Below the pieces are notes generated by a model. The model was not told where the DNA came from and made no database searches. It saw only the letters and a list, made by a program, of their open reading frames with translations. From Acidobacteriota bacterium (GTDB lineage: Bacteria > Acidobacteriota > Blastocatellia > RBC074), in the NCBI GenBank assembly GCA_031423495.1, contig JANPFP010000001.1:32030-96029 (forward strand): 64,000 bases of DNA, given 5' to 3'. The number at the start of each line of letters is the position of its first letter. Position 1 is the first letter of the stretch. This document shows, one piece after another, positions 1-59,504 of the stretch. A program made the translations under genes and the position numbers.

Positions 1-1313
1 ACGCCGTCGTGATTATGATTACGGCGAACGTGCTGGTCGAAGATACGCTCGCGGCTTTGCGCGGCGGGGCTTATGACTTTATCGGCAAGCCAATCAACTT
101 GAATGAACTGCAAGTCACGATTCGCAACGGCATCGAAGCCAACAAATTACGCAAGGAAGTCCATCAACTGCGCCGCGAGAAATCGCGTGAATTCAGCTTT
201 GAGCAAATCATCGGCAGTTCGCACACGATGCAACGAATGATCGCACTGGCGCGCAAGGTCGCCGAGAGCGAAGCATCGTCGGTGTTGTTGCAAGGCGAAA
301 GCGGTACGGGCAAAGACTTGGTGGCGAAAGCCATTCATTACGGTTCGCGCCGTTCCGAAGCGCCTTTCGTAGCGATCAATTGCGCAGCGATTCCAGGGAC
401 ATTGATCGAGAGCGAACTCTTCGGTTTTGAAAAGGGTTCGTTCACCGACGCCAAAGCGCGCAAAGAAGGTTTATTCGAGCAGGCCGAAGGAGGGACGATC
501 TTTTTAGATGAAATCGGCGAACTCGAACTGAGCTTGCAAGCCAAGCTCTTGCGCGTTTTAGAAGAAGGCGCGTTTCGGCGCGTTGGCGGATTGAAAGACC
601 TGCCGCTTGACGTGCGCATCCTCGCGGCATCAAACCGCGATCTCAAAACTGAGAGCGAAGCCGGACGATTCAGGCTTGATCTTTATTATCGGTTGTCGGT
701 GATTCAGATTGATTTGCCGACCTTGCGCGAACGCGGCGATGACGTGTTGTTGCTGGCTGATTACTATCTCGCGCAATTCAATCGCCAATTCAGCAAGGGC
801 AAGCGCCCGGCGGTACGCGGCCTGATGCCAGAAGTCGCAGCGATCTTTCGTCGCTACGGTTGGCCGGGCAACGTGCGCGAACTACGCAACGTGATCGAAC
901 GCGTGATGATTCTCGAAGACGGCGACCAGATTACGACAATGTATTTGCCGCGCGGCCTTATGGCAGAAATGCTGGCCGAAGAGCCAACCGTTCCCCACGC
1001 TCCCCACGCCGCTGCGGCTGCGGCCACGATGACGACGAACTATGTTCCGTCGGTGGTCGCGCCGCAGCCAACCATAGAAGTTCCTGCGCTGACGGAAACG
1101 CCTGCGGCAGTGCCGATGACGATTCCCGTAAGCACAACCTTTCAACTGCCTACGCAAGGCTTGCAACTCGAAGAGTTCGAGTTGTCGCTGGTGCGGCAGG
1201 CCATCGAACGCAGCCACGGCAATCAAACGCGCGCGGCTGAATTGCTGGGCATCTCGCGCGATCAGTTGCGCTATCGTTTGAAAAAACTCGAAGACATTCC
1301 AGCGGAGCCATAA
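1..1313 (+). CDS. sigma-54-dependent Fis-family response regulator (NtrC-like), 5' partial; receiver domain runs off the window start
   Basis: AAA+ sigma-54 activator motifs [15 protein letters not shown] and GAFRRVGG, C-terminal Fis-type HTH ([19 protein letters not shown]); ~70-aa Pro/Ala-rich linker between the AAA+ and HTH domains. Confidence 0.85.
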
Positions 1314-1316
1314 ACT

Positions 1317-2441
1317 ATGGCGAGCGATTCTCCCTTACCGATTTTGCCAAACATAACGAGCCTGCCGCCCGCTTGCGAAGCCTTGCTCAATGCGCTGACT
1401 GACGGCGTGTGCGTGCAAACGCTTGACTCGCACATCGTCAAAGCCAATCCCGCGTTCGCCGCCATGCTCGGCCTGCCACTCGATCAAATCATTGGTCACA
1501 CCTGCGCTGAAGTGTTTGGCTGCACGAATGAGACGGGCAGCGTGCCGTCGTTTTGCGCGCGGCAAGCCAGCCACGCTACGCATGAACCTGCGAGCGAAGA
1601 AATCAACGGACGCCTGCCCGGCCAACGGCTGCGCGCGCGCGTCTCGCCCGTGCTGGACGAGGGCGGCAACGTGACGGCTTATGTGATGGTGGTACGCGAC
1701 GTGACCGATGTGGTCGCGCGCGAACGCGAACAAGCCCGCGTCGAGCAACTAGCACGTTTCGGCGAACTCGCCGCCGGACTCGCACACGAAATCAAAAATC
1801 CGCTCGCGGGCATTCAAGGCGCGATGGATATTTTGCTGCAACGTTGTGCCGACCACGCGCCCGAACGCGAAGTACTCGCCAACGTCAAACACGAAGTCAG
1901 TCGCATCAACAATACGGTGCAAATGCTGCTCGAACGAGCGCGCCCGCGTACGCTGAACTTCCGTCCGACTTCGATCAACGAGACGACGCAACAGGCCGTC
2001 AATCTGGCGCGCGCGAGTTTGACCGGTGAACGCCGCCAACGCATCTGCATCGAATTCACGCCCGCCGCGACCGCACCCGTGCTGCCCGCCGACGCGGCGC
2101 AACTCGAAGACGCCATCCTCAACCTCATTCTCAACGCCGTCGAAGCCATCGAAGGCATCAAAGGTATCGAAGACGGGGACAGGGGCGCGATCACCGTCGA
2201 AGTCCGCCATCCCGACGAAAACCCCAACCACACGATCATTGCCGTCACCGACACCGGACGCGGCATCGCCGCCGCCGACCTGCAACGTATTTTCAGCCCG
2301 TTCTATACGACCCACAGCAACGGCACCGGACTCGGCCTGCCCGCCGTACGCCGCATCGCCCGCGCTCACGGCGGACGCGTCGAAGTAAATTCAACGGTCG
2401 GCAATGGCTCTACCTTTTCAATTCACTTGCCGCATCACTAA
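1317..2441 (+). CDS. sensor histidine kinase (PAS - HisKA - HATPase_c), soluble
   Basis: H-box LAAGLAHEIKNPLAGI; N/G boxes LNLILNAVEA and GTGLGL; starts 4 nt after the regulator stop, so probably an operon. Confidence 0.8.
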   Translation: MASDSPLPILPNITSLPPACEALLNALTDGVCVQTLDSHIVKANPAFAAMLGLPLDQIIGHTCAEVFGCTNETGSVPSFCARQASHATHEPASEEINGRLPGQRLRARVSPVLDEGGNVTAYVMVVRDVTDVVAREREQARVEQLARFGELAAGLAHEIKNPLAGIQGAMDILLQRCADHAPEREVLANVKHEVSRINNTVQMLLERARPRTLNFRPTSINETTQQAVNLARASLTGERRQRICIEFTPAATAPVLPADAAQLEDAILNLILNAVEAIEGIKGIEDGDRGAITVEVRHPDENPNHTIIAVTDTGRGIAAADLQRIFSPFYTTHSNGTGLGLPAVRRIARAHGGRVEVNSTVGNGSTFSIHLPHH

Positions 2442-2460
2442 CGAAATTAAGCGCGATAAG

Positions 2461-2543
2461 AGTTATGGGAGTTATAGGAGTTATAGGCCAAAGTGGACTC
2501 ACCTTACTATCTCTTTCACTCCTATAACTCCTATAACTCCCAT
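2461..2543. repeat. AT-rich inverted repeat with 23-bp perfect arms (atgggagttataggagttatagg / cctataactcctataactcccat), each arm made of a tandem 9-mer (gagttatag), with a 32-bp loop
   Basis: read directly from sequence; unusually AT-rich for this window; lies between the HK gene and a USP gene. Confidence 0.6.
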
Positions 2544-2601
2544 CGCACTTTCACTGCGTAATTTCCCCGCAGCCATTGCGCGAATTCCCGCAATAAACGT
2601 G

Positions 2602-2617
2602 CGGCACACACCTTGCA
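2602..2617 (+). promoter_or_regulatory. candidate sigma-54 -24/-12 promoter cGGCACacaccTTGCA upstream of USP gene
   Basis: GG-N10-GC spacing with TTGCA at -12; ~43 nt upstream of the ATG at 2660. Confidence 0.5.
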
Positions 2618-2659: not shown

Positions 2660-3589
2660 ATGATTCAACTCAAACGTATTTTGTATCCAACTACTGCCTC
2701 GGCGACCGCGTTGCAAGACGGTGATGAAGCCTTGCATTACGCCATCGCGTTGGCGCGTGCTTATGGCGCGGAGTTGTTGCTCTGCCATTGCGTAGAGGCT
2801 ATGCCAATGGTCGCCGACGTAGGTTGGATGACCGCGCGGCAAGATACGCAAATGGCAGCGCGGTTGCGGGGCCTATTGCCTGCGAGTGATGTGCCTGCGA
2901 TCAAAGTGTTGCCCGCAATTAAAGTCTTGATTGAAGACGGCGATCCTGCGACGGAAATCCCGCGCCTCGCCGCCGAACATAACGTTGACTTGATCGTGAT
3001 GCGTTCGCGGCGGCGTCCGCGCGCGGCGGCGTTGTTAGGCTCGACGGCTGAGGCTGTGTGCCGCACTGCGCCTTGCCCGGTGTTGGTCACGCACGCAGAG
3101 GAACACGATTGGGTTAAGCCGCACGACGACACCATCGCGTTGCATCGCATCCTGGTGGCGCATGATTTTTCGAACGATGCGGAGTTGGCGTTTAACTACG
3201 GCATGCTGTTAGCACAGGAATATCAGGCCGAATTGCATTTGTTGCACGTGCTGCCTTTCGCGGCTGTGCCCAGCATGACGACGATTCCCGAAAGCCAAGC
3301 AAACGCGATGCATCAGGCCGCGCGGCGTTTGCAATCCGCCGTACCCGCCGAAACTTACCTGTGGTGCGAAGTCAAACATGCCATCCGCAACGGGCAGCCT
3401 TACCGCGAAATTTTGAGTTACGCCGAAGAGCAAAAAATTGACTTGATCTGTTTGGGCGTACACGGCGCGGGCTTTGCGATGCGCGCGTTGTTCGGCTCGA
3501 ACGCCGACCGCGTCTTGCGGCAAGCGCCATGTCCCGTGCTGATCGCACGTCCGCTGAAACCATTCATCAAAACCGGAGAAACATCATGA
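2660..3589 (+). CDS. universal stress protein, tandem UspA domains
   Basis: two Usp modules (..LLLCHCVE.. and ..LICLGVHGAGF..RVLRQAPCPVLIARP); 309 aa. Confidence 0.85.
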   Translation: MIQLKRILYPTTASATALQDGDEALHYAIALARAYGAELLLCHCVEAMPMVADVGWMTARQDTQMAARLRGLLPASDVPAIKVLPAIKVLIEDGDPATEIPRLAAEHNVDLIVMRSRRRPRAAALLGSTAEAVCRTAPCPVLVTHAEEHDWVKPHDDTIALHRILVAHDFSNDAELAFNYGMLLAQEYQAELHLLHVLPFAAVPSMTTIPESQANAMHQAARRLQSAVPAETYLWCEVKHAIRNGQPYREILSYAEEQKIDLICLGVHGAGFAMRALFGSNADRVLRQAPCPVLIARPLKPFIKTGETS

Positions 3590-4047
3590 AAATCTTACTG
3601 GCCGTTGACGGCTCAGATTACAGCAAGTTTGCCGTTGAGTCGGTCGCCGCGCGTCCGTGGCCGCCCGACAGCGAAGTGAAAGTGCTGTCGGCGATTGAAA
3701 TTCCCTTCACGCCGACGCCTGAAACCTGGTCGCTGCCTGACAGCTATTACGCGCAGATGGAAAAGAACGCGCGCGAAAGCGCCGTGCAAGCGACGCAGGA
3801 AGCCGCTGATCGTTTAGCGCAAAACAGTCCGTCGCAACTGCGCGTCAGCACGGCAACGGAATTGGGTCGCGCGCGCGACGTGATTCTCGACACGGCGGAA
3901 AAGTGGGACGCCGATCTGATTGTGATGGGTTCGCACGGATACAGCGCGATCAAACGCTTCATGCTCGGCTCGGTTTCGCACGTCGTGGCAACCCACGCCC
4001 ACTGTTCGGTCGAGATCGTACGCGAGCGAAAGGCAGCCCAATCATGA
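3587..4047 (+). CDS. universal stress protein, single domain
   Basis: MKILLAVDGSDYSKFAVE...IVMGSHGYSAIKRFMLGSVSHVVATHAHCSVEIVR; ATG overlaps the upstream stop. Confidence 0.85.
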
Positions 4048-4494: not shown

Positions 4495-4523
4495 TGTGGG
4501 GCAGGTTCTCAACCTGCCTCACA
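4495..4523. repeat. palindromic element tgtGGGGCAGGTT-ctc-AACCTGCCtcaca, copy 1 of a 3-member family, followed by a U-rich tract and RBS
   Basis: same core GGGCAGGTT/AACCTGCC recurs at 56635 and 63133. Confidence 0.55.
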
Positions 4524-4542
4524 AATTTTCCGAGGAGGAGTT

Positions 4543-8721: not shown

Positions 8722-8781
8722 AATCGGGCGTTGTTGAGAAAGCGCGCTCAGGGTTATGATTCAGGGCAAGGAGGAATGCTA

Positions 8782-9033
8782 ATGAATGGAACGATCACTT
8801 TACCGATTGACGCAGAATTGGCCGGCTGGCTTACCACGGGAGCGGCGACACGAGGCGTCAGGGTTGAAGAATTCGCCGTAGACACCTTACGCCGCGTTGC
8901 CAAAAAGCCGACTATCAACGAAGTCTTCGCCGACGTGCAAGCCGATTTCAAAGCGAGCGGAATGACCGAAGATGAGTTGGGCGATTTGCTGGAAAAAGCC
9001 GTTGCCGAAGTGAGAGCGAGCAACCGTGACTGA
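8782..9033 (+). CDS. putative antitoxin partner of PIN toxin (small acidic protein)
   Basis: 83 aa; RBS ggagga; its stop overlaps the GTG start of the downstream PIN gene (gtgactga). Confidence 0.5.
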   Translation: MNGTITLPIDAELAGWLTTGAATRGVRVEEFAVDTLRRVAKKPTINEVFADVQADFKASGMTEDELGDLLEKAVAEVRASNRD

Positions 9034-9499
9034 AAAATATCTGGTGGTGTTCGACACGGTGGCTTTGGTGCAGCGCGTAATCGCTCCCGAAGGAAACGCC
9101 GCCAAATGCTTTGCTTATTTTGAAGAAGGAGTAATCGCCGTCGCCGTCAGTCACGCCACACTCAAGGAACTCAAAGACGTGCTTTCACGCTCCTACATCC
9201 GCGACAGGTTTCCGCACATCACCGATGCAATTGTTACTTGGCTAACCGATTTATTGCTTGAAGAAGGCGAGTACCGGCGAAACGTACTCAGACATTTCAC
9301 CTACCCGCGCGACCCCAAAGACGAACCGCCCATTAACCTCGCTATCGAAGTCAATGCTCATTACCTCATCAGCCGTGATAAAGACTTGCTTGATTTGATG
9401 AACTGGAACAAACCGGATGGCCGTGAGTTTCAGCGCCGCTTTCGGTTTCTAAAAATCGTCAAGCCGGAAGAATTCTTGCAAGTAATGGAAGGCAATTGA
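9026..9499 (+). CDS. putative toxin-antitoxin system toxin component, PIN family
   Basis: 157 aa; LVVFDTVALVQ...ISRDKDLLDL acidic PIN-like residues; 8-nt overlap with upstream small gene. Confidence 0.65.
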   Translation: MTEKYLVVFDTVALVQRVIAPEGNAAKCFAYFEEGVIAVAVSHATLKELKDVLSRSYIRDRFPHITDAIVTWLTDLLLEEGEYRRNVLRHFTYPRDPKDEPPINLAIEVNAHYLISRDKDLLDLMNWNKPDGREFQRRFRFLKIVKPEEFLQVMEGN

Positions 9500-9589: not shown

Positions 9590-9708
9590 GGTCTGCCTGA
9601 GCGAAGAATAAAGGCTCTGCCTGAGCGAAATCGCGCATACAAAACAACACAACTGGGGAACCTTGCGCGGCTGACGGCGCAAAACCGACTTATCGCCATT
9701 TATCCGGG

Positions 9709-9725
9709 CTGGCACGAGGCTTGCC
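9709..9725 (+). promoter_or_regulatory. candidate sigma-54 promoter cTGGCACGaggcTTGCc upstream of Hsp20
   Basis: near-perfect match to TGGCACG-N4-TTGC; ~63 nt upstream of the ATG at 9787. Confidence 0.6.
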
Positions 9726-9786: not shown

Positions 9787-10338
9787 ATGCAAGCCCAAAC
9801 AGCGCTGGAAAAGAAACCGGCAACTAACGCAACTAGCCCCTTCTTTGTCGAAGCCGAGAAGCTCCTGGAAGAGATGAAGGAGGTTTCCCAATCCGTAGCC
9901 AAACGTGCTTACGAATTGTTTGATACGCGAGGCCGCGAACTGGGCCACGAACTCGAAGACTGGTTCCGCGCGGAATTTGAAGTCTTACGCTGGGTGCCCG
10001 TCGAGTTGAAAGAAGCGGACGGCAAATTCGTCGTGCGTGCCGAAGTGCCCGGCTTCAACGCCGCCGACCTCAAGATCAGCGTCGAACCCAAACAACTCAC
10101 CATCAGCGGCAAGAAAGAAGAGACGAAGGAAGAACCAAAAGAAGGGCCAAAAGAAGGAAAAGACGCGAATCGCTACTTCTCAGAATTTCGCGCGAATCAA
10201 TTCTGCCGCACGCTGAACCTGCCCAAAGCGGTGGATACGACACAGGCGCAGGCCGCGCTCAAAGATGGTGTACTCGAATTGACGTTGCCGAAAGCAGCGG
10301 TGAGTGAACCGGTCAACGTCTCCGTCAAACCCAATTAA
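9787..10338 (+). CDS. Hsp20/alpha-crystallin family small heat shock protein
   Basis: alpha-crystallin domain ([37 protein letters not shown]...GVLELTLPK). Confidence 0.85.
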
Positions 10339-19774: not shown

Positions 19775-19822
19775 ATTGACTCACCTCTCTCACGATGCCG
19801 GGGGAAACTCCCCAACTTGCAG

Positions 19823-20534: not shown

Positions 20535-20541
20535 GGTGGCA

Positions 20542-48073: not shown

Positions 48074-48394
48074 AACGATACCTCCTTTACGTTTTGGACG
48101 CGCACCGGAAGGCCTCTAACGAGGTCGTAATGATGCGAAAGAAAAGTCTCTTTCTGTTTTGCGCTCCGATGTCGCGTCCGTCTTGCTTGCTGCAAATAAC
48201 ACGCCAACAAAAATCAGCCTGCCTTTGAGGAATCTCGCGCAAGCCGCGCGTCAATTTGCGCTAAATTCGGTAAGGCTGCGCAGTTCAAAGCGGCGATTCA
48301 CTCACAATGCACGCGGCATCACGATTGCACTGCTGAACTGGTGAAGCGCTGATTAGCGGCGAATTTCGTTTATCACTAGAGGAGTAAAAACAAT

Positions 48395-48724
48395 ATGACC
48401 GCAACCGCCCCGACTAAAGAATCAACTGGCATTTTGGAAAAGAGCTTGCACGTAGGCGAACGAGTCGCCCAAGCCGTAATCCAAACCGAACGTGTCAAAG
48501 ACCAACTTACGCACGCGGTAGAAGACTTGAAAGTAGACGTGAAGGCCGAAGCCCAGCGCGCGATCAAACGCACGCGCCGCGTGGCAGAAGACTTGACCGA
48601 AGACACCGCCTATCGCATCAAGCACGATCCGTTCCGCGCCGTGGCTTGTACGTTCGGTGCGGGCTTCGCGCTGGGCGCGTTAGCGAGTTGGGCCGTAACG
48701 CGACGCCAAAAGGAATGCGTATGA
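48395..48724 (+). CDS. DUF883 (YqjD/ElaB-like) membrane-anchored protein
   Basis: coiled-coil N-terminus and C-terminal TM (FRAVACTFGAGFALGALASWAV) typical of ElaB/YqjD. Confidence 0.65.
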   Translation: MTATAPTKESTGILEKSLHVGERVAQAVIQTERVKDQLTHAVEDLKVDVKAEAQRAIKRTRRVAEDLTEDTAYRIKHDPFRAVACTFGAGFALGALASWAVTRRQKECV

Positions 48725-48828: not shown

Positions 48829-49023
48829 CTCATTCATAGTGATGAGGCCTCGGCCATTTTCTAAACTCTGTGTCGGCTCCGTCTCGGCCCTCATAGCCGG
48901 GAACCATCCTTTGTGAGTGATGGTGAAATTTCCGCATCACATTCAACCAACCCGCCGGGAACGATACTTGCTGCGGCATTTTACGTAGTTACATTTCATC
49001 AAAAATAAATCACGAGGATAAAG

Positions 49024-50931
49024 ATGGGCGAGCATAACATTTCTTCCATGCACGACCTGCAACAATCACAGCAGTTCATGCATGCCTTACTCAACGATCT
49101 GACTGCGTTAGAGCGAATGATTGAAAGCGGACGTATCGAAACCGGTGTGCGTCGCATAGGCGCTGAACAGGAGATGTTTCTGGTGGATGCCGGAATGCGC
49201 CCTGCCTCAGTCGCGCCGCAGGTATTGGATGCGTTGAATGAGCCGCGCCTGACGACTGAAATTGGACGCTTTAACCTCGAAGCCAATTTATCACCGCAAC
49301 TATTTGCTGGCGGATGTTTGCGCGCGATGGAACAAGAGTTGATTGAATTGGTCGCCTTGGCGCGTCGCGGCGCAGCAATGCAACAAGCTGACATTGTGTT
49401 GACCGGCATCTTGCCAACGATTCGACAGTCTGATCTGGCAATCGAAAACCTCTCGCCTGGCCCGCGATACGAGGAACTGAATCAAGTGTTGCAACGATTG
49501 CGGGGCAATCATTTTAATTTACACATCAAAGGGCTAGACGAATTGCAACTCACGCACGATAACGTCTTGCTCGAAGCCTGTTGCACGAGCTTCCAGGTGC
49601 ATTTGCAAGTAGGCCCCTCGGAATTCGCACAGCTTTATAATTTGGCACAGGTCATCACTGCGCCGGTGTTGGCCGCTGCCGCCAATGCGCCATTACTGAT
49701 GGGGCATCGGCTTTGGCACGAGACACGGATCCCGCTGTTTCAAAACGCGGTGGATGAACGCTCTGACGCGCGGCAGTTACGCTCACATCCGCCGCGCGTC
49801 AGTTTTGGCGAAAGCTGGGTCAAGGATTCAGTACTCGAAATTTTCCGCGAAGAAATCGCACGCTTTCGCGTCGTGCTGACCAAACACATAGAAGAAGACG
49901 CACTAGCGGTTTTAGCGTCAGGCACCTTGCCTGAATTGACGGCGCTCCGTTTGCATAACGGTACGGTTTGGCGCTGGAACCGCCCTTGTTATGGCGTGGC
50001 TGGTGGCATCGCGCATTTGCGCATCGAAAACCGTGTCATTCCTGCGGGGCCTTCCATCATTGATGAAATGGCGAATGCGGTATTCTTTCTGGGCCTGATG
50101 ACGGCCTTGCCGGAAGAGTATGGGGATGTCACGCGCCGACTAAGTTTTGATGAAGCCAAAGAAAATTTCTTCGCTGCTGCGCGACACGGCTTAAAAGCAC
50201 AACTCAACTGGATCGGCGGGCAAAGCCGGCCTGCTGCAAACTTGATTCTCGAACATCTTTTGCCGCTGGCGCGCGCCGGATTGAAATCAGTCAACATCCC
50301 AAGCGCCGACATTGACCGCTATCTGGGCGTGTTGGAAGAACGCGTTATCCGTGACCAAAACGGAGCGCAATGGACGTTGCGCTCGCTCAGCGCGCTCGGC
50401 CAACAAGGCACGCGTGAACAAAGACTCGCGGCAATAACCTCTGCGATGGTGCGCAATCAACGCAACGACAAGCCAGTCTGTGAGTGGGAACTTGCTCAGT
50501 TGGATGGCGCGCTTAAGTGGAAACACAACTACCAAACAGTTGGTCAGTTTATGTCTACCGATCTTTTCACCGTGCGGCCTGATGACTTGGTTGATTTGGC
50601 TGCGTGCGTGATGGATTGGCGGCACGTACGCCACGTTCCCGTCGAAGACGATGAAGGCCGTCTCGTTGGCCTTGTCTCGCATCGTGAACTGCTGAAATTA
50701 GTCGCACAAGGGACTGCTCGCAATGCTCAAGTTACCGTCAGCGAGGTGATGAAGCCGCAGCCATTCACCGTCACGCCGCAAACAGCTACGCTCGACGCCA
50801 TCGCGATAATGCGGCAACAAGGCATAGGCTGCCTGCCTGTGGTAGAAAACGGCAAACTCGTAGGATTAATCACTGCGCACGATTTTCTGCGGCTTTCAGC
50901 CGAGATATTGGAAGCAGAGTTAAAGTCATAA
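49024..50931 (+). CDS. glutamate-cysteine ligase family 2 (carboxylate-amine ligase) fused to a tandem CBS-domain pair
   Basis: GCL2/YbdK-like core ([11 protein letters not shown]...), C-terminal two CBS domains ([12 protein letters not shown].., [12 protein letters not shown]..). Confidence 0.7.
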
Positions 50932-52121: not shown

Positions 52122-52247
52122 CGAATGAACCTTACCACCTCTCTTTTCTCGGTTGTCTGCAAACACAATGCCCAACTCATTTTGCGGACTTCTGCTCAAT
52201 GAATTTGCCTTTCTGAATGCAAATTGCGCGGAATCTCCCAATAAATG

Positions 52248-52264
52248 CTGGCATCTGATTTGCT
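52248..52264 (+). promoter_or_regulatory. candidate sigma-54 promoter cTGGCATctgatTTGCT upstream of pentaheme cytochrome
   Basis: GG-N10-GC; ~65 nt upstream of the ATG at 52328. Confidence 0.5.
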
Positions 52265-52327: not shown

Positions 52328-53137
52328 ATGTTCAAACGATTGATCGTATTAGTTGCATTGCTGCCGGGTATATTCATGCTCGCCTCCAACCAACTTGAAA
52401 AAGCGGCAGCTCAGGATGTATTGGCTGCCTTCAAAGGCAATAATTGTGTCACCTGTCACGTCAGGTTGACTGCGCCATACAAAGTAACTTCGCGCTATGC
52501 TGAATGGCACATCTCAACGCACATGGATAAAAAAATTGGCTGCGAGAAATGTCATGGCGGAGACGCTGCGGTAGCGGATGCAGCTAAAGCTCATGTCGGT
52601 GTTCAATCAGCGACAAATCCAGACAGCAAATTGCACGCAAAGAATCTGGCGACGACCTGCAATGCCTGCCACAAAGAAATCACCAGCTCATTCGTCGAGA
52701 GCAAGCACTATCAAAATTTGACTGGCGCCGGACTTGGGCCGAGTTGCATTACCTGCCACGGGCATATGGCTTCTGAAGTGATTTATACGCCCGCCCAAAC
52801 CGCCAAACTTTGCGCCAGTTGCCATGATTCAACGAACGCGCTGATGCCCAAACGCCCTGAAATTCCCGGCAAAGCTGAGGTGACGATGCAAGCCATCCGT
52901 CGCGCCAATATGGTTACGCTTTGGGCTGAGAGATTGGTGAATGAAGCCAAGGAAAAAAAGATGGAGATCGCGGATGCTGAAAAAGAAATGAAGATCGTCC
53001 GCGCCATGATGGCCGAATCTGTGATCGCCTGGCACAGCTTCAACTTGGATGTTGTGCAAAGAAAAGCTGACGCTGCATTCGAAACCGGCACGAAGTTAAA
53101 AGACGAATTGCGCGCCAAGCTTTATCCGAACCGCTAA
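52328..53137 (+). CDS. membrane-anchored pentaheme c-type cytochrome
   Basis: 5 CxxCH (CVTCH, CEKCH, CNACH, CITCH, CASCH); N-terminal TM/signal anchor; paralog at 62313..63110. Confidence 0.8.
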   Translation: MFKRLIVLVALLPGIFMLASNQLEKAAAQDVLAAFKGNNCVTCHVRLTAPYKVTSRYAEWHISTHMDKKIGCEKCHGGDAAVADAAKAHVGVQSATNPDSKLHAKNLATTCNACHKEITSSFVESKHYQNLTGAGLGPSCITCHGHMASEVIYTPAQTAKLCASCHDSTNALMPKRPEIPGKAEVTMQAIRRANMVTLWAERLVNEAKEKKMEIADAEKEMKIVRAMMAESVIAWHSFNLDVVQRKADAAFETGTKLKDELRAKLYPNR

Positions 53138-53199
53138 TGACTCAATTAGCCTGCGGTTATTTGCGACCACTTCGCACTCTCTGCCACCTACAAACTAAG

Positions 53200-53245
53200 C
53201 ACAGCCAAACCATTTGGCGCGTGGTTTGGCTGTGTTCAATTTTAG
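53200..53245 (+). terminator. rho-independent terminator: 13-bp perfect stem cacagccaaacca / tggtttggctgtg plus U-tract
   Basis: read directly; 60 nt after the cytochrome stop. Confidence 0.7.
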
Positions 53246-53316
53246 CCAACCAAAAGCCGATTCCTTACATTGAGAAATCGCTTGCGGAATAGTCCCCAAC
53301 TTTGCCTTTTTCGCGG

Positions 53317-53332
53317 TGGTACGAGTGTTGCA
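53317..53332 (+). promoter_or_regulatory. candidate sigma-54 promoter TGGTACgagtgTTGCA upstream of decaheme cytochrome gene
   Basis: matches TGGCAC-N5-TTGCA at 14 of 16 positions; ~85 nt upstream of the ATG at 53416. Confidence 0.55.
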
Positions 53333-53415
53333 CTCCCCGTAGTCGAACGACTCAATTGAGTCAAAATCCGCAGCAATTATCCTTTTGCTGTAACTCTTGG
53401 ATGAGGTACTCATAA

Positions 53416-54462
53416 ATGAAAGCAATCAAACTCATCTGCGTTGTATTTTTTGGACTGGGCGTATTACTGCTGGCACTTTCGCCACGCATTGCCCAGTTCT
53501 CGTTATTCAACCGTTCTGTCGTGACTGCTAAGGCTTTACCACCTGACGACTTGAGCAAATACGTTGGCAGCGATTCGTGCGCAGAATGCCACGGAGCCGA
53601 GGTCGCCCGTTATGAACTGACGGCGCACAGCAAAACCAAACTCATCAGTGACAAGGTGAATTTGCGCGGTTGCGAATCGTGCCACGGCGGCGCGCGCGAT
53701 CACGTAGCCTTTTATCTGGACATTCAAAAAGCGAACGAAGCGGGCAAGGAAGCCGAGGCGGAAAAGTTAATGAACGATACCGTGAAAGCTGCGGCGGCCT
53801 CGCTATCTTCGTTCAAGAACATGCCTGCCGCGCAGGCCACGGCGACTTGTTTGAAATGCCACGAAGGCACGCAAGGCCGCAGCGAAGAACGCTTCAATTA
53901 CCGACGCGGCGAACACGCGCGACACGGCGTTTCGTGCAACGATTGTCACTCTTCGCACGAACCCAAACGCACTGAGTTTCTGTTAAAAGCGCCTGAGCCG
54001 GGCTTGTGTTACACCTGCCACGCCGAACAGAAAGCCTCGTTCGCCAAACCTTTCCATCACAAAGTGCCCGAAGGCGGCATGAACTGTTCTGATTGCCACA
54101 ATCAGCACGGCGGATTCGCGGGCAAGTCGTTGCGCAATTCGGTCAACGGCGATTCGGCTTGCGTGAAATGCCACGCCGATAAACAGGGGCCGTTCGTGTT
54201 TGAGCATGCACCGGTCAAAGTCGAAGGCTGTCAGGCTTGCCATACGCCGCACGGCTCGACCAACCCGAAATTGCTGACGCGCAACGTCGTCAGGTTCCTG
54301 TGCCTTGAATGCCACTCGAATACACCTGAGTTGACGGGCGACGGAGCCGGGCTGGGTACGCAATCGCCGACGGGGCACGACCTGACACAACCGCGTTATC
54401 AAAATTGCACGGTCTGCCACATTGACATTCACGGCTCAAACAAAGAGCGGTTCTTCCGCTAA
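53416..54462 (+). CDS. periplasmic decaheme c-type cytochrome, MtrA/MtoA/PioA-like
   Basis: 348 aa with exactly 10 CxxCH (CAECH, CESCH, CLKCH, CNDCH, CYTCH, CSDCH, CVKCH, CQACH, CLECH, CTVCH); signal peptide; followed by a large OM beta-barrel gene. Confidence 0.8.
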
Positions 54463-54480
54463 GAGGAAAGGAGGCTGACA

Positions 54481-56622
54481 ATGAATATTCAAAGTAAATC
54501 AATGCAACGGTGGCTCTCCTGCTTGTTCGTGGGAGCCTGCACAACACTTTGCTTCTCCGGTGGCGCATGGGCGCAATCCGTCGAGAAGGCTGAAACGAGC
54601 CAGCAAGCACGTGAGGCTGACAGCGAACTCGAACGCGCCAAAGCCATCGTCAACAAACCCAAAGAGAACAAACCCGTAAAGACCGAAACAGGCCGTACGT
54701 GGGGCGTTTATTCGACGACCAGTTCGCTGGAAGTCGGCTATCGCTTCGTCAATGCGCGCGGCAGCGAAGCACGTTATCTGTCGGACGTGAATGTGCGCGA
54801 TGGTTTGCGCGTGCTGGAATCCACTGTGGATATGCGCGCGCGACCGGGAACTGGTTTGCTCTTCGATCACATGCGCGCCGAAGTACACAACGCGGGCGGC
54901 GATCAAAGTCAGAGCTTTGCGTTGCGTATGGACAAAACCAAATGGTATCGCTTCGATAGCAACGTCAGGCGGTTTAATTATTATCGTTCGCCGGGGCCGA
55001 ATTTCGCGTTGGGCTTTCGCGATTACGATTTGCGGCAACAGGTGTCTGATTACAGCTTGCGGTTGTTGCCGCAACGCGCCGTGCGCTTCAACGTGGGTTA
55101 TGCCCGCAGCATGGCGAAAGGCCGTTATAACCCGACCTACAGCTTTCAACGCGACATCTTTCAGTTGTTCGGCGATACGCGCTGGGAAGCCAACGATTAC
55201 CGGCTCGGAATGGACGCCACTTATCGCAAGTGGGATTTTAACGTAGAGCAACTTTATCGCACCTTCCGTAACGATCCCGACATCAACTCACGACCGGGCG
55301 GCGATTTGGGTTTCAACCCGACGGACGGCGGCAGACTTACGCTGCTTGATCGGGCGACGCCACAACGTTCGACGGCGGCGGTCATTCGCGGCAGTGTGCG
55401 CGGCAGTGTGGCGGAACGCGTGCATGTCGTGTTACGCGGCTTGCACGATGAAGAGCGAATGCGCGCGGCTTATTACGAAATTGCCAGCGGCAGAAACAAC
55501 AACAACGTTGCCATGCCGAGTTACGTGCTGACGCTGCCCGCTCCCGGCGCGAATGTCACTAGGCCGAACAGCCGCGTAGACGCCGCTGTCAGTTTCGACA
55601 TCAATGATCATCTGACCTTGAGCAATACGTTTGGCTATACCGCGTTCAAGATTCTCGGCAACACCGACGTGACGGCGACGACCGTGTTGCAACCCGCGAC
55701 GGGGCCGCCAACGACTACGACGACGCGGCAAGTGTTCACGAATTACATCACCGACCTGACTTCCTATTCCAACACGCTGGCGTTGGACATCAGTTATGGC
55801 CGCAAGTTCAGCGCCAATTTAGGCTGGCGCGCCATGCAACGTGATGTTTCGCTGGCGAATAACTTTCTCACGGCGACCAGTCCGATTTCGGCCACCAATC
55901 CGCAAATCGGGAGCGAAAGCGAATCTATCGGCACGCACGCTTTCATCGGCGGTCTGCGGGTGCGTCCGACTGAGAACACCAGCTTTATGTTCGACATCGA
56001 ACAGGGGCAGAACAACAACTCGTTCGTGCGTATCAATCCACTTGATTACCTGCGCATCCGCGCGCGCGCGCAAGTGAAAGCGACTGATAAGTTAGGTTTC
56101 ACAGGCACATTCACTTCGACGGATCGCACCAATCCTACGCCGCAGGTGAACAACGAATCTGACGCGCGTAGTTACACGGTGGCAGTGAATTGGGAACCCA
56201 AAGAGCGCGTGTGGCTTGATGCCGGATACGACTATCACGACCTGTTTGCGACGGGGAACATTCTTTACACGCTCAATGTCGGCGGCACGAACCAACGCAT
56301 TTCGGGCCGGTCGCTTTATTACGCGCGCATCAATTCAGTTTATTTGAACACGCGGTTGGGGTTGAGCAAACGTCTTGATCTGATGATGTTCTATTACTAC
56401 ATCATGGATCGCGGCATTCCGTCGGTCAGTTTGGGGCCGAACGACAACGCCAATGCGCTGCCACTCAGACGCCACAATCCTGAAGCCCGCCTCGCTTATC
56501 GCTTCACCAACCACGTGACCGGCAATCTGAGTTACCGACATTACAGCTACAACGAGCGCGATTTCTTCGTGCAGGATTATCGTGCAAACATCCTCACGAG
56601 CAGTCTGCGTTTCACTTTTTAA
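54481..56622 (+). CDS. MtrB/PioB-like outer membrane beta-barrel (porin partner of decaheme cytochrome)
   Basis: 713 aa, signal peptide, alternating amphipathic strands, C-terminal ...LRFTF aromatic terminus; size and synteny match MtrB/MtoB. Confidence 0.6.
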   Translation: MNIQSKSMQRWLSCLFVGACTTLCFSGGAWAQSVEKAETSQQAREADSELERAKAIVNKPKENKPVKTETGRTWGVYSTTSSLEVGYRFVNARGSEARYLSDVNVRDGLRVLESTVDMRARPGTGLLFDHMRAEVHNAGGDQSQSFALRMDKTKWYRFDSNVRRFNYYRSPGPNFALGFRDYDLRQQVSDYSLRLLPQRAVRFNVGYARSMAKGRYNPTYSFQRDIFQLFGDTRWEANDYRLGMDATYRKWDFNVEQLYRTFRNDPDINSRPGGDLGFNPTDGGRLTLLDRATPQRSTAAVIRGSVRGSVAERVHVVLRGLHDEERMRAAYYEIASGRNNNNVAMPSYVLTLPAPGANVTRPNSRVDAAVSFDINDHLTLSNTFGYTAFKILGNTDVTATTVLQPATGPPTTTTTRQVFTNYITDLTSYSNTLALDISYGRKFSANLGWRAMQRDVSLANNFLTATSPISATNPQIGSESESIGTHAFIGGLRVRPTENTSFMFDIEQGQNNNSFVRINPLDYLRIRARAQVKATDKLGFTGTFTSTDRTNPTPQVNNESDARSYTVAVNWEPKERVWLDAGYDYHDLFATGNILYTLNVGGTNQRISGRSLYYARINSVYLNTRLGLSKRLDLMMFYYYIMDRGIPSVSLGPNDNANALPLRRHNPEARLAYRFTNHVTGNLSYRHYSYNERDFFVQDYRANILTSSLRFTF

Positions 56623-56634
56623 TAACCCAATTCG

Positions 56635-56661
56635 GTAGGGCAGGTTACTAACCTGCCCTAC
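56635..56661. repeat. palindromic element GTAGGGCAGGTT-acta-AACCTGCCCTAC, copy 2, between beta-barrel and monoheme cytochrome genes
   Basis: perfect 12-bp arms; followed by aatttcggaggaaaatccATG. Confidence 0.6.
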
Positions 56662-56679
56662 AATTTCGGAGGAAAATCC

Positions 56680-57033
56680 ATGAATTCGACTGCCAAAAAA
56701 ACTGTGGCCGCACTCTTAGCCACCGTAGCTTTGACACTCTCTTTTTATGCGTCCCTGTCGGCTCCTGAGGCTGAAGCTTTCCAGAGCGTCAAGAGTTTGT
56801 ACGCCTCGAAATGTGCGGTTTGCCACGGTAACGACGGAAGCGCGAACACAGCCAAAGGCAAGGAATTGAAAGTTCGTAACTTGAAATCTGAGGAATTCAA
56901 AAAAATGCCCGACGCCAAAGCTATGGAAGTTATGCTCAAGGGCAAGGGCAAGATGGAAGGCTATGAAAAAACTCTCGGCAAGGAGAAGTGCGAACAATTG
57001 CTCGCCTATTGCCGCGAGCTTTCAAACAAATAA
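56680..57033 (+). CDS. periplasmic monoheme class-I cytochrome c (MtoD-like)
   Basis: signal peptide; single CAVCHG; ~117 aa. Confidence 0.7.
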   Translation: MNSTAKKTVAALLATVALTLSFYASLSAPEAEAFQSVKSLYASKCAVCHGNDGSANTAKGKELKVRNLKSEEFKKMPDAKAMEVMLKGKGKMEGYEKTLGKEKCEQLLAYCRELSNK

Positions 57034-57161
57034 GCTGTTACCTGCATCGGAATAGATACGGGTTGGTGAGTTGTTGCGTTCCATCCTGGCAGTCGCGCAA
57101 TTCGCCAGCCCTTTTATTATTTGCCGATTATTTCTGCCGATTATTTCTGGAGAACATTGCT

Positions 57162-57791
57162 ATGGGAGCTAATATAACCATTGTGATTGCCGTCATCCTG
57201 TTCAGCATCGCTCTGATTGCCTGGCTGATCTGGCGTCCGTCAATAACCGCCACGCGCGGAGGCAAGATGCTGGCCTTCGTTACGTTGCTGGTGTTTCCAC
57301 TGTTAGCCGGTGGCCTGGGCGTCAATGAACAACTGGCGCATTCCAAGACGACCAATTTCTGTCTGTCGTGCCACGTGATGGAAGATTACGGCAAGAGTTT
57401 GCACGTAGATGATCGCAGCCTCGTCCCCGCCATCCATTATCAGAACAACCTCGTGCCGCGCGACAACGCCTGTTTTACCTGCCACACCGATTACACGATG
57501 TTCGGCGATATGAATGCGAAGTTGCGCGGCTTGAAACACGTATACGCTTATTACATTGGCAAGCCGCAGCAGCCGATCAAGTTGTATACGCCTTACAACA
57601 ACCGCGAATGTTTGCATTGCCATTTGGGCGCGCGCTCTTACCAGGAATCAGAAGCGCACACCAAAAAGCCGCAACGTCTTGAACAAATGCGGCTCAATCA
57701 ACTGAGTTGCAGCACTACGGATTGCCATAACAACGTCCACAACATCAAAACGCTGAAAGAGGCGTCCTTTTGGAAGGAGTCCGGCAAATGA
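57162..57791 (+). CDS. NapC/NirT family membrane-anchored multiheme cytochrome (CymA-like quinol dehydrogenase)
   Basis: N-terminal TM helix; CLSCH, CFTCH, CLHCH plus an atypical CSTTDCH; spacing typical of NapC/NrfH. Confidence 0.7.
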   Translation: MGANITIVIAVILFSIALIAWLIWRPSITATRGGKMLAFVTLLVFPLLAGGLGVNEQLAHSKTTNFCLSCHVMEDYGKSLHVDDRSLVPAIHYQNNLVPRDNACFTCHTDYTMFGDMNAKLRGLKHVYAYYIGKPQQPIKLYTPYNNRECLHCHLGARSYQESEAHTKKPQRLEQMRLNQLSCSTTDCHNNVHNIKTLKEASFWKESGK

Positions 57792-58012
57792 ATCACCCAC
57801 TCACAAAAATCGAAAAACGGATTCGCCTTTCCGGCTTGCTGATTATCGCAGGGCTGTTAGTGGAACTGATTACGTTGCGCTGGTCTCATCCAACTGCGTT
57901 TCTGTTCTTCCTGCTGCTGGGCGGTACACTGATGGCGGCAGGCATTCTGATTTATCTTTTCTCTCTGGCTTCGATTGGCGCGACCGATGAGCGATCCGAT
58001 CTTGCCAAATAG
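57788..58012 (+). CDS. small membrane protein (74 aa)
   Basis: two TM helices; ATG overlaps the CymA-like stop (aaatgaatc). Confidence 0.4.
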   Translation: MNHPLTKIEKRIRLSGLLIIAGLLVELITLRWSHPTAFLFFLLLGGTLMAAGILIYLFSLASIGATDERSDLAK

Positions 58013-58057
58013 CGTTCCCCCCGCAGCCGATTAGGAATGAGGAATGGCGGGCGGCGC

Positions 58058-59383
58058 TCAATCAATGTCGCGCGCCTCTGTTTGCGCTTGCGACAAATTG
58101 ACGCCGCTCAATAACCACAACCCGCCGACAAACAACACCAACAGCGAAAGAATCGCCAGCCGGTATTGTCCGGTGAATTGATAGGCCAGCCCAAACAGCA
58201 AAGGCCCCAGCCAACTCGCGCCCTTGTCGGTGATTTCATAAAAACTGAAATACTCGGCCTCGTGGCCGACGGGAATCATTTGCGCGAACAGCGAACGACT
58301 CAGTGCTTGACTGCCGCCCAACACCACCGCGATGACTGCGCCGAGCCAATAGAACTGTGCCGCCGTGTGTAAAAAGCCGTAAAGATAAAACAACGCGCCA
58401 ATCCAAATCAGTAAGCTCAACATCACGGCGCGTTTGGCTCCCATCACTTTGGCGAGCGCGTTGAAAAGCAAGCTGCCGCCAAAGGCTACGAATTGCACGA
58501 GCAAAATCACTTGCGTCAGCGTAGCGATTGAGAGCCGCAATTCTTCTTGTCCGAATTGCGAAGACAGCGTGATGACTGTTTGAATGCCGTCGTTGAATAA
58601 CAAATAGGCGAGCAAAAATCGCAGCGTATGCGGCGCACGACGAATCTTGCCGAACGTGGCGCGCAAGCGAGTGAATCCGGCGGACAGATAATTCGTTGCG
58701 CTTGGTTGGGTTGGCATCGAGGGACGATTGCGCAGGATAGCCACCGGAATCAATGTGAACACCGCCCACCACACGCCCGCCGAAGCGAGGCTTAATCGCA
58801 CGGCGCGTTCGGTCGTCAGTCCCCAACGTTCGGCTTGCGTGACGAGCAATAGATTCAAGGCCAACAGCAATCCGCCGCCGAGATAACCGAGCGCCCAACC
58901 AATCGAAGATACGCGGTCGCGTTCGTCCGGCGCGGCGATTTCGGGCAAGAAGGCGTTGTAAAAAACGATGGATGGATGATAGGCAAACGTCGCCAACAGA
59001 AAGAGCGCGCCGCCTGCCAGATAATGCGTACCTTGCAACCAATACATCGCCATCGTCGCGCCTGATCCGACAAAAGCGCACACGCCGAGCAATTCGCGTT
59101 TGCGATTGGTCGTATCGGCCAACGCGCCTACGACGGGCAACACCAAAACTTGCACGGCAACCGAAAGCGCGATGAGGTAAGGAAAGTAAGCTCCCGCGCG
59201 AATGCTCAAGCCCAACGGATGCACGTAACCATTTTCATCTGCTGCGGCCTTCGTAATGACCGTCAGCCACGGGCCGTAAAACACCGTCACCACGCTGGTA
59301 TAAAACGCCGAGTTCGCCCAGTCGTAAAAATACCAGCCGAACCGCGCGCGTTTCATAGCGACGGGCGAGACACAATCATCCAT
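58058..59383 (-). CDS. MFS transporter
   Basis: 12-TM layout, 441 aa. Confidence 0.75.
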   Translation of the reverse strand: MDDCVSPVAMKRARFGWYFYDWANSAFYTSVVTVFYGPWLTVITKAAADENGYVHPLGLSIRAGAYFPYLIALSVAVQVLVLPVVGALADTTNRKRELLGVCAFVGSGATMAMYWLQGTHYLAGGALFLLATFAYHPSIVFYNAFLPEIAAPDERDRVSSIGWALGYLGGGLLLALNLLLVTQAERWGLTTERAVRLSLASAGVWWAVFTLIPVAILRNRPSMPTQPSATNYLSAGFTRLRATFGKIRRAPHTLRFLLAYLLFNDGIQTVITLSSQFGQEELRLSIATLTQVILLVQFVAFGGSLLFNALAKVMGAKRAVMLSLLIWIGALFYLYGFLHTAAQFYWLGAVIAVVLGGSQALSRSLFAQMIPVGHEAEYFSFYEITDKGASWLGPLLFGLAYQFTGQYRLAILSLLVLFVGGLWLLSGVNLSQAQTEARDID

Positions 59384-59487
59384 AAACTACCTCCGCCGCT
59401 TTCTTGAGCAATCGTCAAGCCGTGAGTGTGGCTGCGTGATTTCGCGCAAGCCACGCTCATCGTTGCGCAATATGACACAGCTTTAGG

Positions 59488-59504
59488 CTGGCATCGCACT
59501 TGCA
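59488..59504 (+). promoter_or_regulatory. candidate sigma-54 promoter cTGGCATcgcacTTGCA upstream of USP
   Basis: TGGCA-N..-TTGCA with canonical spacing; ~25 nt upstream of the ATG. Confidence 0.5.

Follow-up and report, generated by a model that had tools for sequence, protein, structure and literature searches.

The closest characterized counterpart of the system described here is NmpRSTU of Myxococcus xanthus, which consists of the globin-coupled kinase NmpU, the hybrid kinase NmpS, the double-receiver protein NmpT, and the NtrC-like regulator NmpR (PMC11841059). In this multi-kinase relay, which includes a heme sensor in addition to the hybrid kinase, NmpR works with sigma-54, controls its own expression, and acts through two enhancer sites at each promoter; the system is induced by hypoxia, and its targets include a CBS protein, a universal stress protein (USP), and a P-type ATPase (PMC11841059). 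We analyzed a 64-kb segment of DNA from an Acidobacteriota bacterium (contig JANPFP010000001.1; the whole segment is referred to as the window) and propose, with a probability of roughly 0.8, that it carries a single regulon of approximately 19–20 predicted sigma-54 promoters with a common 18-bp activator site (the box), from which an NtrC-family enhancer-binding protein (EBP; encoded at positions 9–1313) with two kinases would activate them. The likeness to NmpRSTU lies in the NtrC-like regulator predicted to act with sigma-54, the hybrid kinase, the predicted autoregulation, the paired upstream sites, and the CBS, USP, and P-type ATPase targets. The NmpR regulon, however, comprises 7 promoters and 23 genes, whereas this window alone, from a different phylum, has about 20 promoters and eight USP genes; and where NmpRSTU senses through the globin-coupled kinase NmpU, a heme-binding PAS domain is predicted here. 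The NmpR site (GCGCA-N5-TGCGC) is not enriched in the window (15 matches with at most one mismatch vs 20.6 expected). One such match (2567–2581) belongs to the first USP gene's promoter region, where it does no more than overlap the 18-bp box; no tandem pair of them lies upstream of the regulon promoters.

The DosR/DevR regulon of Mycobacterium tuberculosis includes several USPs, hspX (Hsp20), the P-type ATPase gene ctpF, and the CBS protein Rv2626c, and is autoregulated; the palindromic DevR boxes recur in tandem with helical phasing, at −42.5 and −63.5, and serve divergent genes in common, and the kinases bind heme (PMC3177182). DosR, however, is a NarL/LuxR-type regulator that acts on sigma-70-type promoters through a 20-bp box and is served by the GAF-heme kinases DosS and DosT, whereas the system described here combines an AAA+ EBP, sigma-54 −24/−12 elements, an 18-bp box, and a PAS domain of the heme type. 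The window proteins include no LuxR-type helix-turn-helix (HTH) and no GAF kinase, and the box lies upstream of −24/−12 cores. The resemblance to DosR is limited to content and geometry, and is one of convergence, not homology. In the lxa locus of Burkholderia cenocepacia, low oxygen induces approximately 50 genes, a single motif recurs at 17 intergenic points, and six USPs, a cation ATPase, and two-component systems are encoded there (PMC3721108). The lxa motif is Anr/FNR-like (TGA-N6-TCA), which implies CRP/FNR regulators and sigma-70; the window encodes no CRP/FNR protein, and its regulon genes are not preceded by that motif. Matches to the FNR consensus (TTGAT-N4-ATCAA-type) number 45 vs 23 expected, but nearly all of them lie in coding DNA and none is found at class II distance upstream of a regulon gene.

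Classical NtrC-family systems (NtrC at glnAp2, ZraR, and NifA) employ a REC-AAA+-Fis-HTH activator on tandem palindromes and depend on the face of the helix, and divergent sigma-54 promoters with common enhancers are exemplified by zraP/zraSR. In the textbook account of sigma-54 activation, the enhancer is located away from the promoter, contact is made by looping, often with IHF, and the AAA+ ring sits over −20 to −12 (PMC7057263). In contrast, the proximal site in the window is approximately 18.5 nt from the GG element, abutting the polymerase footprint, and the activator has a GSFTDA/GAFTDA loop. A site centered at about −43.5 is atypical against the textbook view, although we make no claim that it lacks precedent.

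Intergenic DNA makes up 9 per cent of the window. Protein families were assigned by Pfam and NCBIfam scans, which place the EBP (5′ end missing) and a PAS kinase (1317–2441) at the head of the window, and a PAS-PAS hybrid kinase (20908–22929) and a receiver protein (22940–23725, minus strand) farther along, all as proposed in a first-pass annotation made from the sequence alone. The same scans identify eight USP genes, Hsp20, rubrerythrin, PNPOx, and a P-type ATPase operon, a DksA/TraR-like protein that leads a YwiC-PFOR operon, and, elsewhere in the window, a 635-aa CBS protein and an MFS transporter. Counts of CXXCH motifs are 5 in a pentaheme cytochrome, 10 in an MtoA-like decaheme cytochrome, 0 in an MtoB-like porin, 1 in a monoheme c-type cytochrome, and 3 in a NapC/CymA-like protein.

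The exact −24/−12 pattern GGCA-N6-TTGC (equivalent to TGGCAC-N5-TTGC) occurs 21 times in the window, vs 5.15 ± 2.4 times expected, and none of 100 dinucleotide shuffles reaches this count. The first-pass annotation thus set its chance estimate (about 2) too low, yet the enrichment still holds. It is also specific to the spacing, because the controls do not reproduce the claimed sites: a spacing of N8 yields 2 matches vs 5 expected, and TGGCA-N7-TTGCW with at most one mismatch yields 21 vs 11.8 expected (2 of 100 shuffles reach 21), with no claimed site among the matches. Seven exact matches inside genes (2854, 6247, 8102, 20124−, 36184, 45745−, and 51283−) are probably due to chance. When the whole window is searched with a generic sigma-54 position weight matrix (PWM) at a threshold of at least 11 bits, 19 of the 36 matches fall within the intergenic 9 per cent (approximately 1.4 expected), and all 19 are aimed at genes; the other 17 are in coding DNA, where approximately 13.7 are expected, and are therefore at chance level. 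Across the 19 aligned cores, GG and TTGC are invariant (19/19), the separation of GG and GC is exactly 10 nt, and the consensus is YGGCAY-N5-TTGCW.

The ten sites already listed in the first-pass annotation all exist, within 1–4 nt of the positions given there, but the GGCA that it assigned to −24 does not hold for two of them (TGGAAC at 42810 and TGGTAC at 53317). Their 16-nt cores are at 2602–2617, 9710–9725, 19823–19838, 23833–23848, 52249–52264, 53317–53332, and 59489–59504 on the plus strand and at 31227–31242, 32013–32028, and 42795–42810 on the minus strand. As had been described, they are intergenic and oriented to the adjacent gene; 25–92 nt separate the −12 GC and the start codon. 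To these we add about nine intergenic cores (30175−, 31329+, 32095+, 35894+, 48205−, 48315+, 48958+, 52172−, and 59421−), and there is an additional weak core at 23806−.

Candidates for the conserved upstream activator sequences that the first-pass annotation had suggested seeking are present within 100 nt upstream of the cores. By reading the 100 nt upstream of each core and then refining a PWM iteratively, we found at most promoters an 18-bp palindrome with the consensus TTGCGGAAATTTCCGCAA, in which T2, G3, G5, C14, C16, and A17 are nearly invariant; the half-sites occur in TTGCGC-like and TTGGGG-like variants. All matches of at least 14 bits in the window are intergenic (11/11), although window counts of the box are circular because the box PWM was trained on the same window. 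At no fewer than 14 promoters the PWM finds boxes with the same phase: box centers are located 18.5 + n × 10.5 nt upstream of GG, with observed distances of 17.5–19.5 (ten promoters), 27.5–29.5, 38.5, ~50, ~60, ~70, and 81.5 nt. A Rayleigh scan of these distances peaks at a period of 10.4–10.6 bp (R = 0.93), and once the 12.5 nt from GG to the −12 GC are added, whole numbers of turns (3 to 10) separate the box center and the −12 element. In five cases, promoters are paired back to back with their GG elements 68–110 bp apart (31241−/31329+, 32027−/32095+, 48205−/48315+, 52172−/52250+, and 59421−/59490+), and such pairs use common boxes, one (31250–31267) in the first of these regions and two in each of the others. 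The first-pass annotation had recognized neither the common box and its phasing nor the divergent pairs of promoters, nor the phylum.

As an independent test of the box, 124 kb of Blastocatellia loci outside the PWM training were searched for both motifs, using the box PWM as trained on the window and the generic sigma-54 matrix, with Markov controls. These loci contain 26 pairs in which a box lies 10–130 nt upstream of a core and 0 in which it lies downstream (0.28 expected), and the phasing again peaks at 10.4–10.6 bp, in the same phase as in the window (R = 0.71). In a genome scan with the first USP protein, the closest relatives are Acidobacteriota metagenome-assembled genomes (MAGs; 82–94 per cent identity), followed by Blastocatellia and Pyrinomonadaceae MAGs (54–59 per cent identity). 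This result refutes an origin in the Gallionellaceae (Betaproteobacteria), which the mto-like cluster and the GC content had suggested. The gene order EBP-histidine kinase-USP-PNPOx is syntenic in the loci of 8 relatives, and −24/−12 cores are kept upstream of orthologous USP genes at 54–59 per cent protein identity. The targets kept among relatives comprise the USPs (together with PNPOx), Hsp20, the receiver protein, the P-type ATPase, and the EBP operon; the sites are kept in orthologous intergenic regions, upstream of USP, EBP, Hsp20, response-regulator, and ATPase orthologues. A core and boxes also precede the EBP operon itself in the relatives' loci L001, L003, L007, L010, and L014. A Nitrospirota EBP-USP locus (L016) showed no comparable promoter set. 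In the usual Blastocatellia layout, two boxes are situated approximately 70 and 92 nt upstream of GG, whereas the lineage of the window has a two-box module at 18.5 and approximately 40.5 nt, i.e. five turns closer. Close relatives differ by clean 10-bp indels, one helical turn, between box and core at the USP and Hsp20 promoters; at the L001 Hsp20 orthologue the indel lies between the boxes and the core. One locus (L012, CAZTUB010000012.1), labeled 'uncultured Clostridia bacterium', has the same EBP (69 per cent identity), USP, and hybrid kinase and the same phased box-plus-core units as the Blastocatellia loci, and its bin is probably mislabeled or chimeric.

Four genes of the window encode candidate signaling proteins:

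9–1313, plus strand: NtrC-family EBP, 5′ end cut by the window edge (Pfam Sigma54_activat, PF00158, 6e-68; AAA_lid_14; HTH_8, PF02954, 1.6e-15)

1317–2441, plus strand: cytoplasmic histidine kinase with PAS, HisKA, and HATPase_c domains, in one operon with the EBP

20908–22929, plus strand: hybrid sensor kinase, PAS-PAS-HisKA-HATPase-REC (Pfam), with a first PAS domain of the FixL/DosP heme type

22940–23725, minus strand: response regulator with a receiver domain (Response_reg, 3e-25) and a C-terminal half of ~130 aa

Orthologues of the EBP (64–86 per cent identity; L001 and others) start with a receiver domain (MAKEKILVVDDE), and their HTH is invariant; no NCBIfam equivalog reaches its cutoff with the EBP. 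The 'GAFRRVGG' cited in the first-pass annotation is not the GAFTGA loop. Instead, the L1 loop (residues ~143–148 of the partial protein) is GSFTDA in the window's EBP and GAFTDA in those of Blastocatellia, so that the fifth residue is Asp, not Gly; F and T, which are reported as critical, are kept, and the unrelated outgroup EBPs of L016 and L020 have GAFTGA. By association, this EBP is most likely the protein that binds the box, because the window encodes no other AAA+ activator and its gene is syntenic with a box-bearing target, because its own operon has a core and boxes in the five relatives named above, and because an invariant HTH matches a conserved box.

In the hybrid kinase, the first PAS domain gives a match to BjFixL (1dp6) at 6e-20 and is also like DosP; equivalents of the proximal His (BjFixL H200) and of R206 are kept. 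The kinase gene is in an operon behind a regulon promoter and is kept near the EBP gene in L001, L012, and L014. The C-terminal half of the receiver protein (22940–23335, minus strand) has no Pfam match and no detectable HTH. Its AlphaFold2 (AF2) model is unusable (predicted local distance difference test [pLDDT] score of 42.6), with low-confidence alternating strand-helix units in the C-terminal half; this half may represent another receiver, degenerate in sequence, comparable to that of NmpT. Sigma-54 cores accompanied by phased boxes are found at the receiver-protein orthologues of L007 and L014. We infer the low-oxygen part of the first-pass interpretation from the FixL-type heme-PAS of the hybrid kinase and from the content common to the DosR, lxa, and NmpR regulons; for the signal itself, the heme-PAS and the gene content make oxygen, redox, or a gas the most likely input, at about even odds.

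The promoter units of the window are as follows (distances are from box center to GG):

2576–2617, plus strand: promoter of a tandem USP gene (2660–3589), a single USP gene (3529–4047), and PNPOx (to 4481); box 2576–2593, a perfect palindrome TTGCGCGAATTCCCGCAA (23 bits, 18.5 nt), and core 2602–2617, CGGCACACACCTTGCA; kept in L001–L014

9621–9725, plus strand: promoter of Hsp20 (9787–10338); box 9621–9638 (17.1 bits, 81.5 nt) and core 9710–9725, TGGCACGAGGCTTGCC (15.5 bits)

19798–19838, plus strand: promoter of an operon of a 69-aa open reading frame (ORF), YvlD, an 84-aa ORF, and the heme-PAS hybrid kinase (19906–22929); core CGGCACAGTGCTTGCA and box CCGGGGGAAACTCCCCAA (11.5 bits, 17.5 nt)

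23792–23807, minus strand: weak candidate core of the response-regulator gene, TGGTCTGCGATTTGCT (9.5 bits); orthologous genes have strong cores (TGGAACAATTCTTGCA)

23833–23890, plus strand: promoter of an operon of the P-type ATPase, a 360-aa ORF, and an AI-2E transporter (23930–28643); core 23833–23848, AGGCACGTCAGTTGCC (12.7 bits)

30161–30206, minus strand: promoter of a 145-aa membrane protein (30125–29688); core AGGCACAGTGATTGCC (11.5 bits) and a weak box (10.1 bits, 22.5 nt)

31227–31343, bidirectional: core 31227–31242 (minus) to a tandem USP gene (31200–30247) and core 31328–31343 (plus) to a 60-aa ORF at 31400; common box 31250–31267 (19.8 bits), at 17.5 and 70.5 nt from the two promoters

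32013–32109, bidirectional: core 32013–32028 (minus) to rubrerythrin (31952–31554) and core 32094–32109 (plus) to an operon of a tandem USP, an AMP-binding protein, and a CHAD protein (32166–34966); box 32068–32085 (17.9 bits, at 18.5 and 49.5 nt) and weak box 32037–32054 (TTGCG-N8-CGCAA with 1 mismatch, <9 bits)

35847–35908, plus strand: promoter of an operon of DksA/TraR-like, YwiC, PFOR, and DHO-dehydrogenase-like proteins (35929–41700); core CGGCATCTGATTTGCT and box (12.7 bits, 38.5 nt)

42795–42810, minus strand: core of a tandem USP gene (42704–41805), GGAA variant TGGAACAACAGTTGCC (11.1 bits); no box of at least 9 bits in the intergenic DNA, and a 12.3-bit match at 69.5 nt

48191–48329, bidirectional: core 48191–48206 (minus) to a secreted 137-aa protein (48073–47660) and core 48314–48329 (plus) to a DUF883/ElaB-like protein (48395–48724); boxes 48225–48242 (19.4 bits) and 48256–48273 (11.5 bits), 28.5/59.5 nt from one promoter and 81.5/50.5 nt from the other

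48920–48972, plus strand: promoter of the 635-aa CBS-domain protein (49024–50931); core GGGAACGATACTTGCT (12.0 bits) and box (15.7 bits, 29.5 nt)

52158–52264, bidirectional: core 52158–52173 (minus) to an AstE/AspA-family protein (52121–50952) and core 52249–52264 (plus) to the pentaheme cytochrome (52328–53137); boxes 52182–52199 (19.5 bits) and 52224–52241 (15.6 bits), each proximal to one promoter (18.5 or 17.5 nt) and distal to the other (59.5 or 60.5 nt)

53282–53332, plus strand: promoter of the cluster of MtoA-like decaheme cytochrome, MtoB-like porin, monoheme c, and NapC/CymA-like protein (53416–57791); core TGGTACGAGTGTTGCA (15.2 bits) and box TTGCGGAATAGTCCCCAA (21.7 bits, 27.5 nt)

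59407–59504, bidirectional: core 59407–59422 (minus, 9.9 bits) to an Atg22-like MFS transporter (59383–58058) and core 59489–59504 (plus, 15.1 bits) to a single-domain USP gene (59528–59977); boxes 59432–59449 (18.3 bits) and 59463–59480 (9.3 bits), at 19.5/50.5 and 49.5/18.5 nt

Together, these 19–20 or so promoters would drive approximately 40 of the approximately 60 genes of the window, which we regard as a genomic island, including 7 of the 8 USP genes, Hsp20, rubrerythrin, PNPOx, the P-type ATPase operon, the DksA-like/PFOR operon, the CBS protein, the MtoAB/CymA-type cytochromes, and transporters. The promoters can be assigned to one regulon because an 18-bp palindromic upstream activator site is common to them, and a single phased site argues that one regulator controls them all and that they are not a mere collection of unrelated sigma-54 promoters. 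The coordinated regulon envisaged by the first-pass annotation thus gains support from the gene-directed intergenic cores, their conservation at approximately 55 per cent protein identity, the shared phased box, and the synteny of the EBP-kinase genes with USP genes. In the mechanism that we propose, dimers of the NtrC-family regulator would bind the box, the PAS kinase and the FixL-type heme-PAS hybrid kinase would be its partner kinases, and the phosphorylated EBP would form an AAA+ ring at one box or at two, from which it would remodel the sigma-54 holoenzyme in its closed complex. In the lineage of the window, the box would usually be three turns from the −12 element, at approximately −43.5 from the predicted transcription start, adjoining polymerase. 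Because boxes would lie next to polymerase at whole-turn positions, two of them could serve two back-to-back promoters; and since the EBP and the heme-PAS kinase both appear to be members of the regulon, positive feedback would be expected. More tentatively, and as less likely than not, we suggest that the enhancer has been shifted beside the promoter in this lineage, with the EBP dimer site at approximately −43.5, an AAA+ ring that reaches sigma-54 with little or no looping, and a module tolerated only at whole-turn positions; if this is true, the 10-bp indels between close relatives would be shifts of the box relative to the promoter.

Several observations weigh against the proposed regulon or parts of it. 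The only strong box of the ATPase unit (23873–23890, 15.9 bits) is 47.5 nt downstream of GG, and likewise in L001, whereas the L014 orthologue has its box upstream, at 69.5 nt. Counting this promoter (23834), five promoters deviate, the boxes being weak or out of phase at the other four (19824, 30175, 35894, and 42809). Window-wide, the crude pattern TTGCG-N8-CGCAA is not enriched (15 vs 12 expected), and the significance of the box derives from intergenic position and phasing, not from a count of this pattern; moreover, the scan of the relatives' loci is the only independent test of the box PWM. The promoter of the window's own EBP gene falls beyond the window, and in the closest relatives the core of that gene ends 16 nt before the ATG (L001 7073–7105; L003 358–390), which leaves a leader of approximately 6 nt without a Shine-Dalgarno (SD) sequence, whereas the leader in Blastocatellia is 60–75 nt. 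The non-canonical GSFTDA/GAFTDA loop is present in all eight EBP orthologues (L001–L014). The distal Arg of FixL (R220), which contacts O2, is Asn in the hybrid kinase, and the ligand of the predicted heme-PAS is therefore uncertain. Finally, the RpoN-box peptide is not encoded in any sequence examined, and rpoN was thus not found in them; in an earlier survey, RpoN was encoded by 3/3 of the Acidobacteria genomes covered.

The position of the proximal box invites an alternative in which the sigma-54 promoters are real but another factor, either the receiver protein or an unlinked co-activator or repressor, occupies the box, and the window's EBP binds elsewhere or serves only the neighboring USP operon. 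A site at approximately −43.5 is typical of class II activators and repressors rather than of EBPs, DevR boxes are located at −42.5 and −63.5, and the receiver protein is a conserved member of the regulon that has no recognized output domain. Yet it also has no detectable HTH. Sigma-54 requires an AAA+ activator, and the window's sole candidate, the EBP, shows synteny with a target that bears a box and, in relatives, has a box and a core in front of its own gene. In addition, the Blastocatellia boxes, at ~70 and ~92 nt above GG (approximately −95 and −117 from the start), occupy a typical EBP enhancer position, and 18-bp palindromes in tandem, 2–4 turns apart, suit dimers with a Fis-type HTH. 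We therefore consider another binder unlikely. The same geometry resembles that of sigma-70-type promoters with a class II factor at the box (at approximately −41.5, as for FNR/Anr or DevR), in which case GG-N10-GC would be fortuitous, and the analogous USP regulons of other phyla do use sigma-70 with Anr or DosR. This reading fails because the core stays fixed near genes while the box ranges from 18.5 to 92 nt from GG. It is also contradicted by the invariance of GG and TTGC in 19/19 cores, the spacing-specific enrichment, the location of FNR-type matches in coding DNA, and the lack of CRP/FNR or NarL-type regulators among the window proteins, and we regard it as scarcely credible.

Alternatively, several EBPs that respond to different signals could act on these sigma-54 promoters, whose clustering would then merely reflect a sigma-54-rich genome. 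The TTGCGC-like and TTGGGG-like half-site variants and the weak boxes at several promoters would fit such a mixture, and our view is limited to 64 kb of the genome. However, one PWM accounts for the boxes at 14 promoters or more in a single phase, the PWM derived from the window recovers phased boxes in distant relatives, and divergent pairs have boxes in common, all of which makes several independent activators very unlikely. An origin of the sites in a mobile element or dispersed repeat was also considered and rejected: the repeat search shows only USP paralogy, FG-GAP repeats, and small hairpins, and this explanation fails because only the motifs are common to the promoters. Within the single regulon that we favor, the EBP remains the best candidate for the activator.

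Parts of the window appear to lie outside the regulon. An RND efflux operon (~10–19 kb) and a stretch of FG-GAP and unknown genes (~43–48 kb) are without cores and look like inserts. The sigma-54 PWM scan of the window found no convincing core for a second pentaheme-USP operon (63149–61415) or for the gene of an AAA_33 protein (18173–19774), which may be linked to Rv2004c. Between a formate-dehydrogenase-like gene and the Hsp20 promoter, Pfam identifies a small ORF and a PIN-domain (VapC-like) gene (8731–9499), probably a toxin-antitoxin pair; this segment is missing in L001, whose arrangement is more compact. The first gene after the 35894 promoter (35929–36264) encodes a 111-aa DksA/TraR zinc-finger protein (DksA/TraR domains at 5.8e-13), not the YwiC-like protein suggested by the longest ORF. 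The 60-aa ORF behind a regulon promoter at 31400–31582 is truncated, overlaps the 3′ end of the rubrerythrin gene, and has no Pfam match; its N-terminus, MILPVQITFRNMESSPAV, we take to resemble the ribosome hibernation factor HPF/RaiA, and the ORF may be a gene remnant.

Several potential RNA and repeat structures were also observed. In the leader of the first USP gene (2618–2660) and of its L001–L014 orthologues, a GGAGG approximately 30 nt before the ATG is followed by a 5–7-bp hairpin, whose sequence varies among orthologues (CTGCG/CGCAG, GCTG/CAGC, CATCG/CGATG, and GGGCC/GGCCC) and which may draw the SD sequence nearer to the start codon. RNAalifold returned no consensus structure for this leader, and single-sequence folds of it are no better than those of shuffles (z from +0.64 to −1.65). 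The repeat search revealed five 34-nt hairpins, GTAGGGCAGG-loop-CCTGCCCTAC (4496–4529, 26476–26509, 31977–32010, 56635–56668, and 63133–63166), which sit between or after regulon-operon genes, with one within the rubrerythrin 5′ leader, and could be repetitive extragenic palindrome (REP)-like elements, intercistronic stabilizers, or terminators. Two long hairpins are made of short tandem units: one (2443–2565, between the kinase stop codon and the USP promoter) of GGAGTTATA units and the other (59997–60111, between the USP gene at 59528 and a Pyr_redox gene) of CAGGATT units. Tracts of 'ctcccatcactcccatcac', similar to the hairpin units, precede the USP promoter in L002–L004. A search of Rfam gave no matches.

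An MtoA/MtoB/CymA-type porin-cytochrome cluster and two pentaheme cytochromes (52328–57791 and 62313–63149) are encoded in an Acidobacteriota genome, and the position of the main cluster behind regulon promoters suggests that extracellular electron transfer is co-induced with stress genes.

New here are the common 18-bp site with its helical quantization and its place beside the promoter, as well as the bidirectional units, the kinase with a FixL-type heme-PAS domain, and the origin of the window in Acidobacteriota. The geometry of the box is very near that of DevR, yet on sigma-54 promoters. Its helically quantized, promoter-adjacent positions are natural spacing variants with which to ask how close an EBP can be to its promoter and whether looping is needed. 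If the promoter-adjacent enhancer is real, the relatives would provide a natural enhancer-distance series for one activator, and sigma-54 activation might here follow a distinct short-range mode tied to the GAFTDA loop, in an arrangement that would allow very compact bidirectional sigma-54 pairs around two common sites.

Acidobacteriota are among the most abundant bacteria of soil and freshwater, but few studies have addressed their regulation, and culturing them is difficult. Our literature searches found no sigma-54 or USP regulon described for Acidobacteria, and a 2025 cross-phylum survey of sigma-54 does not mention them. For this phylum, the window offers a concrete, testable regulon, with a candidate regulator, a DNA site, approximately 20 promoters, and candidate sensors. 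It would represent an independent solution to a problem for which Actinobacteria use DosR and sigma-70, Proteobacteria use Anr/FNR, and Myxococcota use NmpR and sigma-54. In it, functions of persistence (USPs, Hsp20, rubrerythrin, PFOR, and a DksA-like factor) would be tied to an MtoAB/CymA-type extracellular electron-transfer cluster, and this link of persistence and electron transfer suggests how Acidobacteriota cope with fluctuating oxygen.

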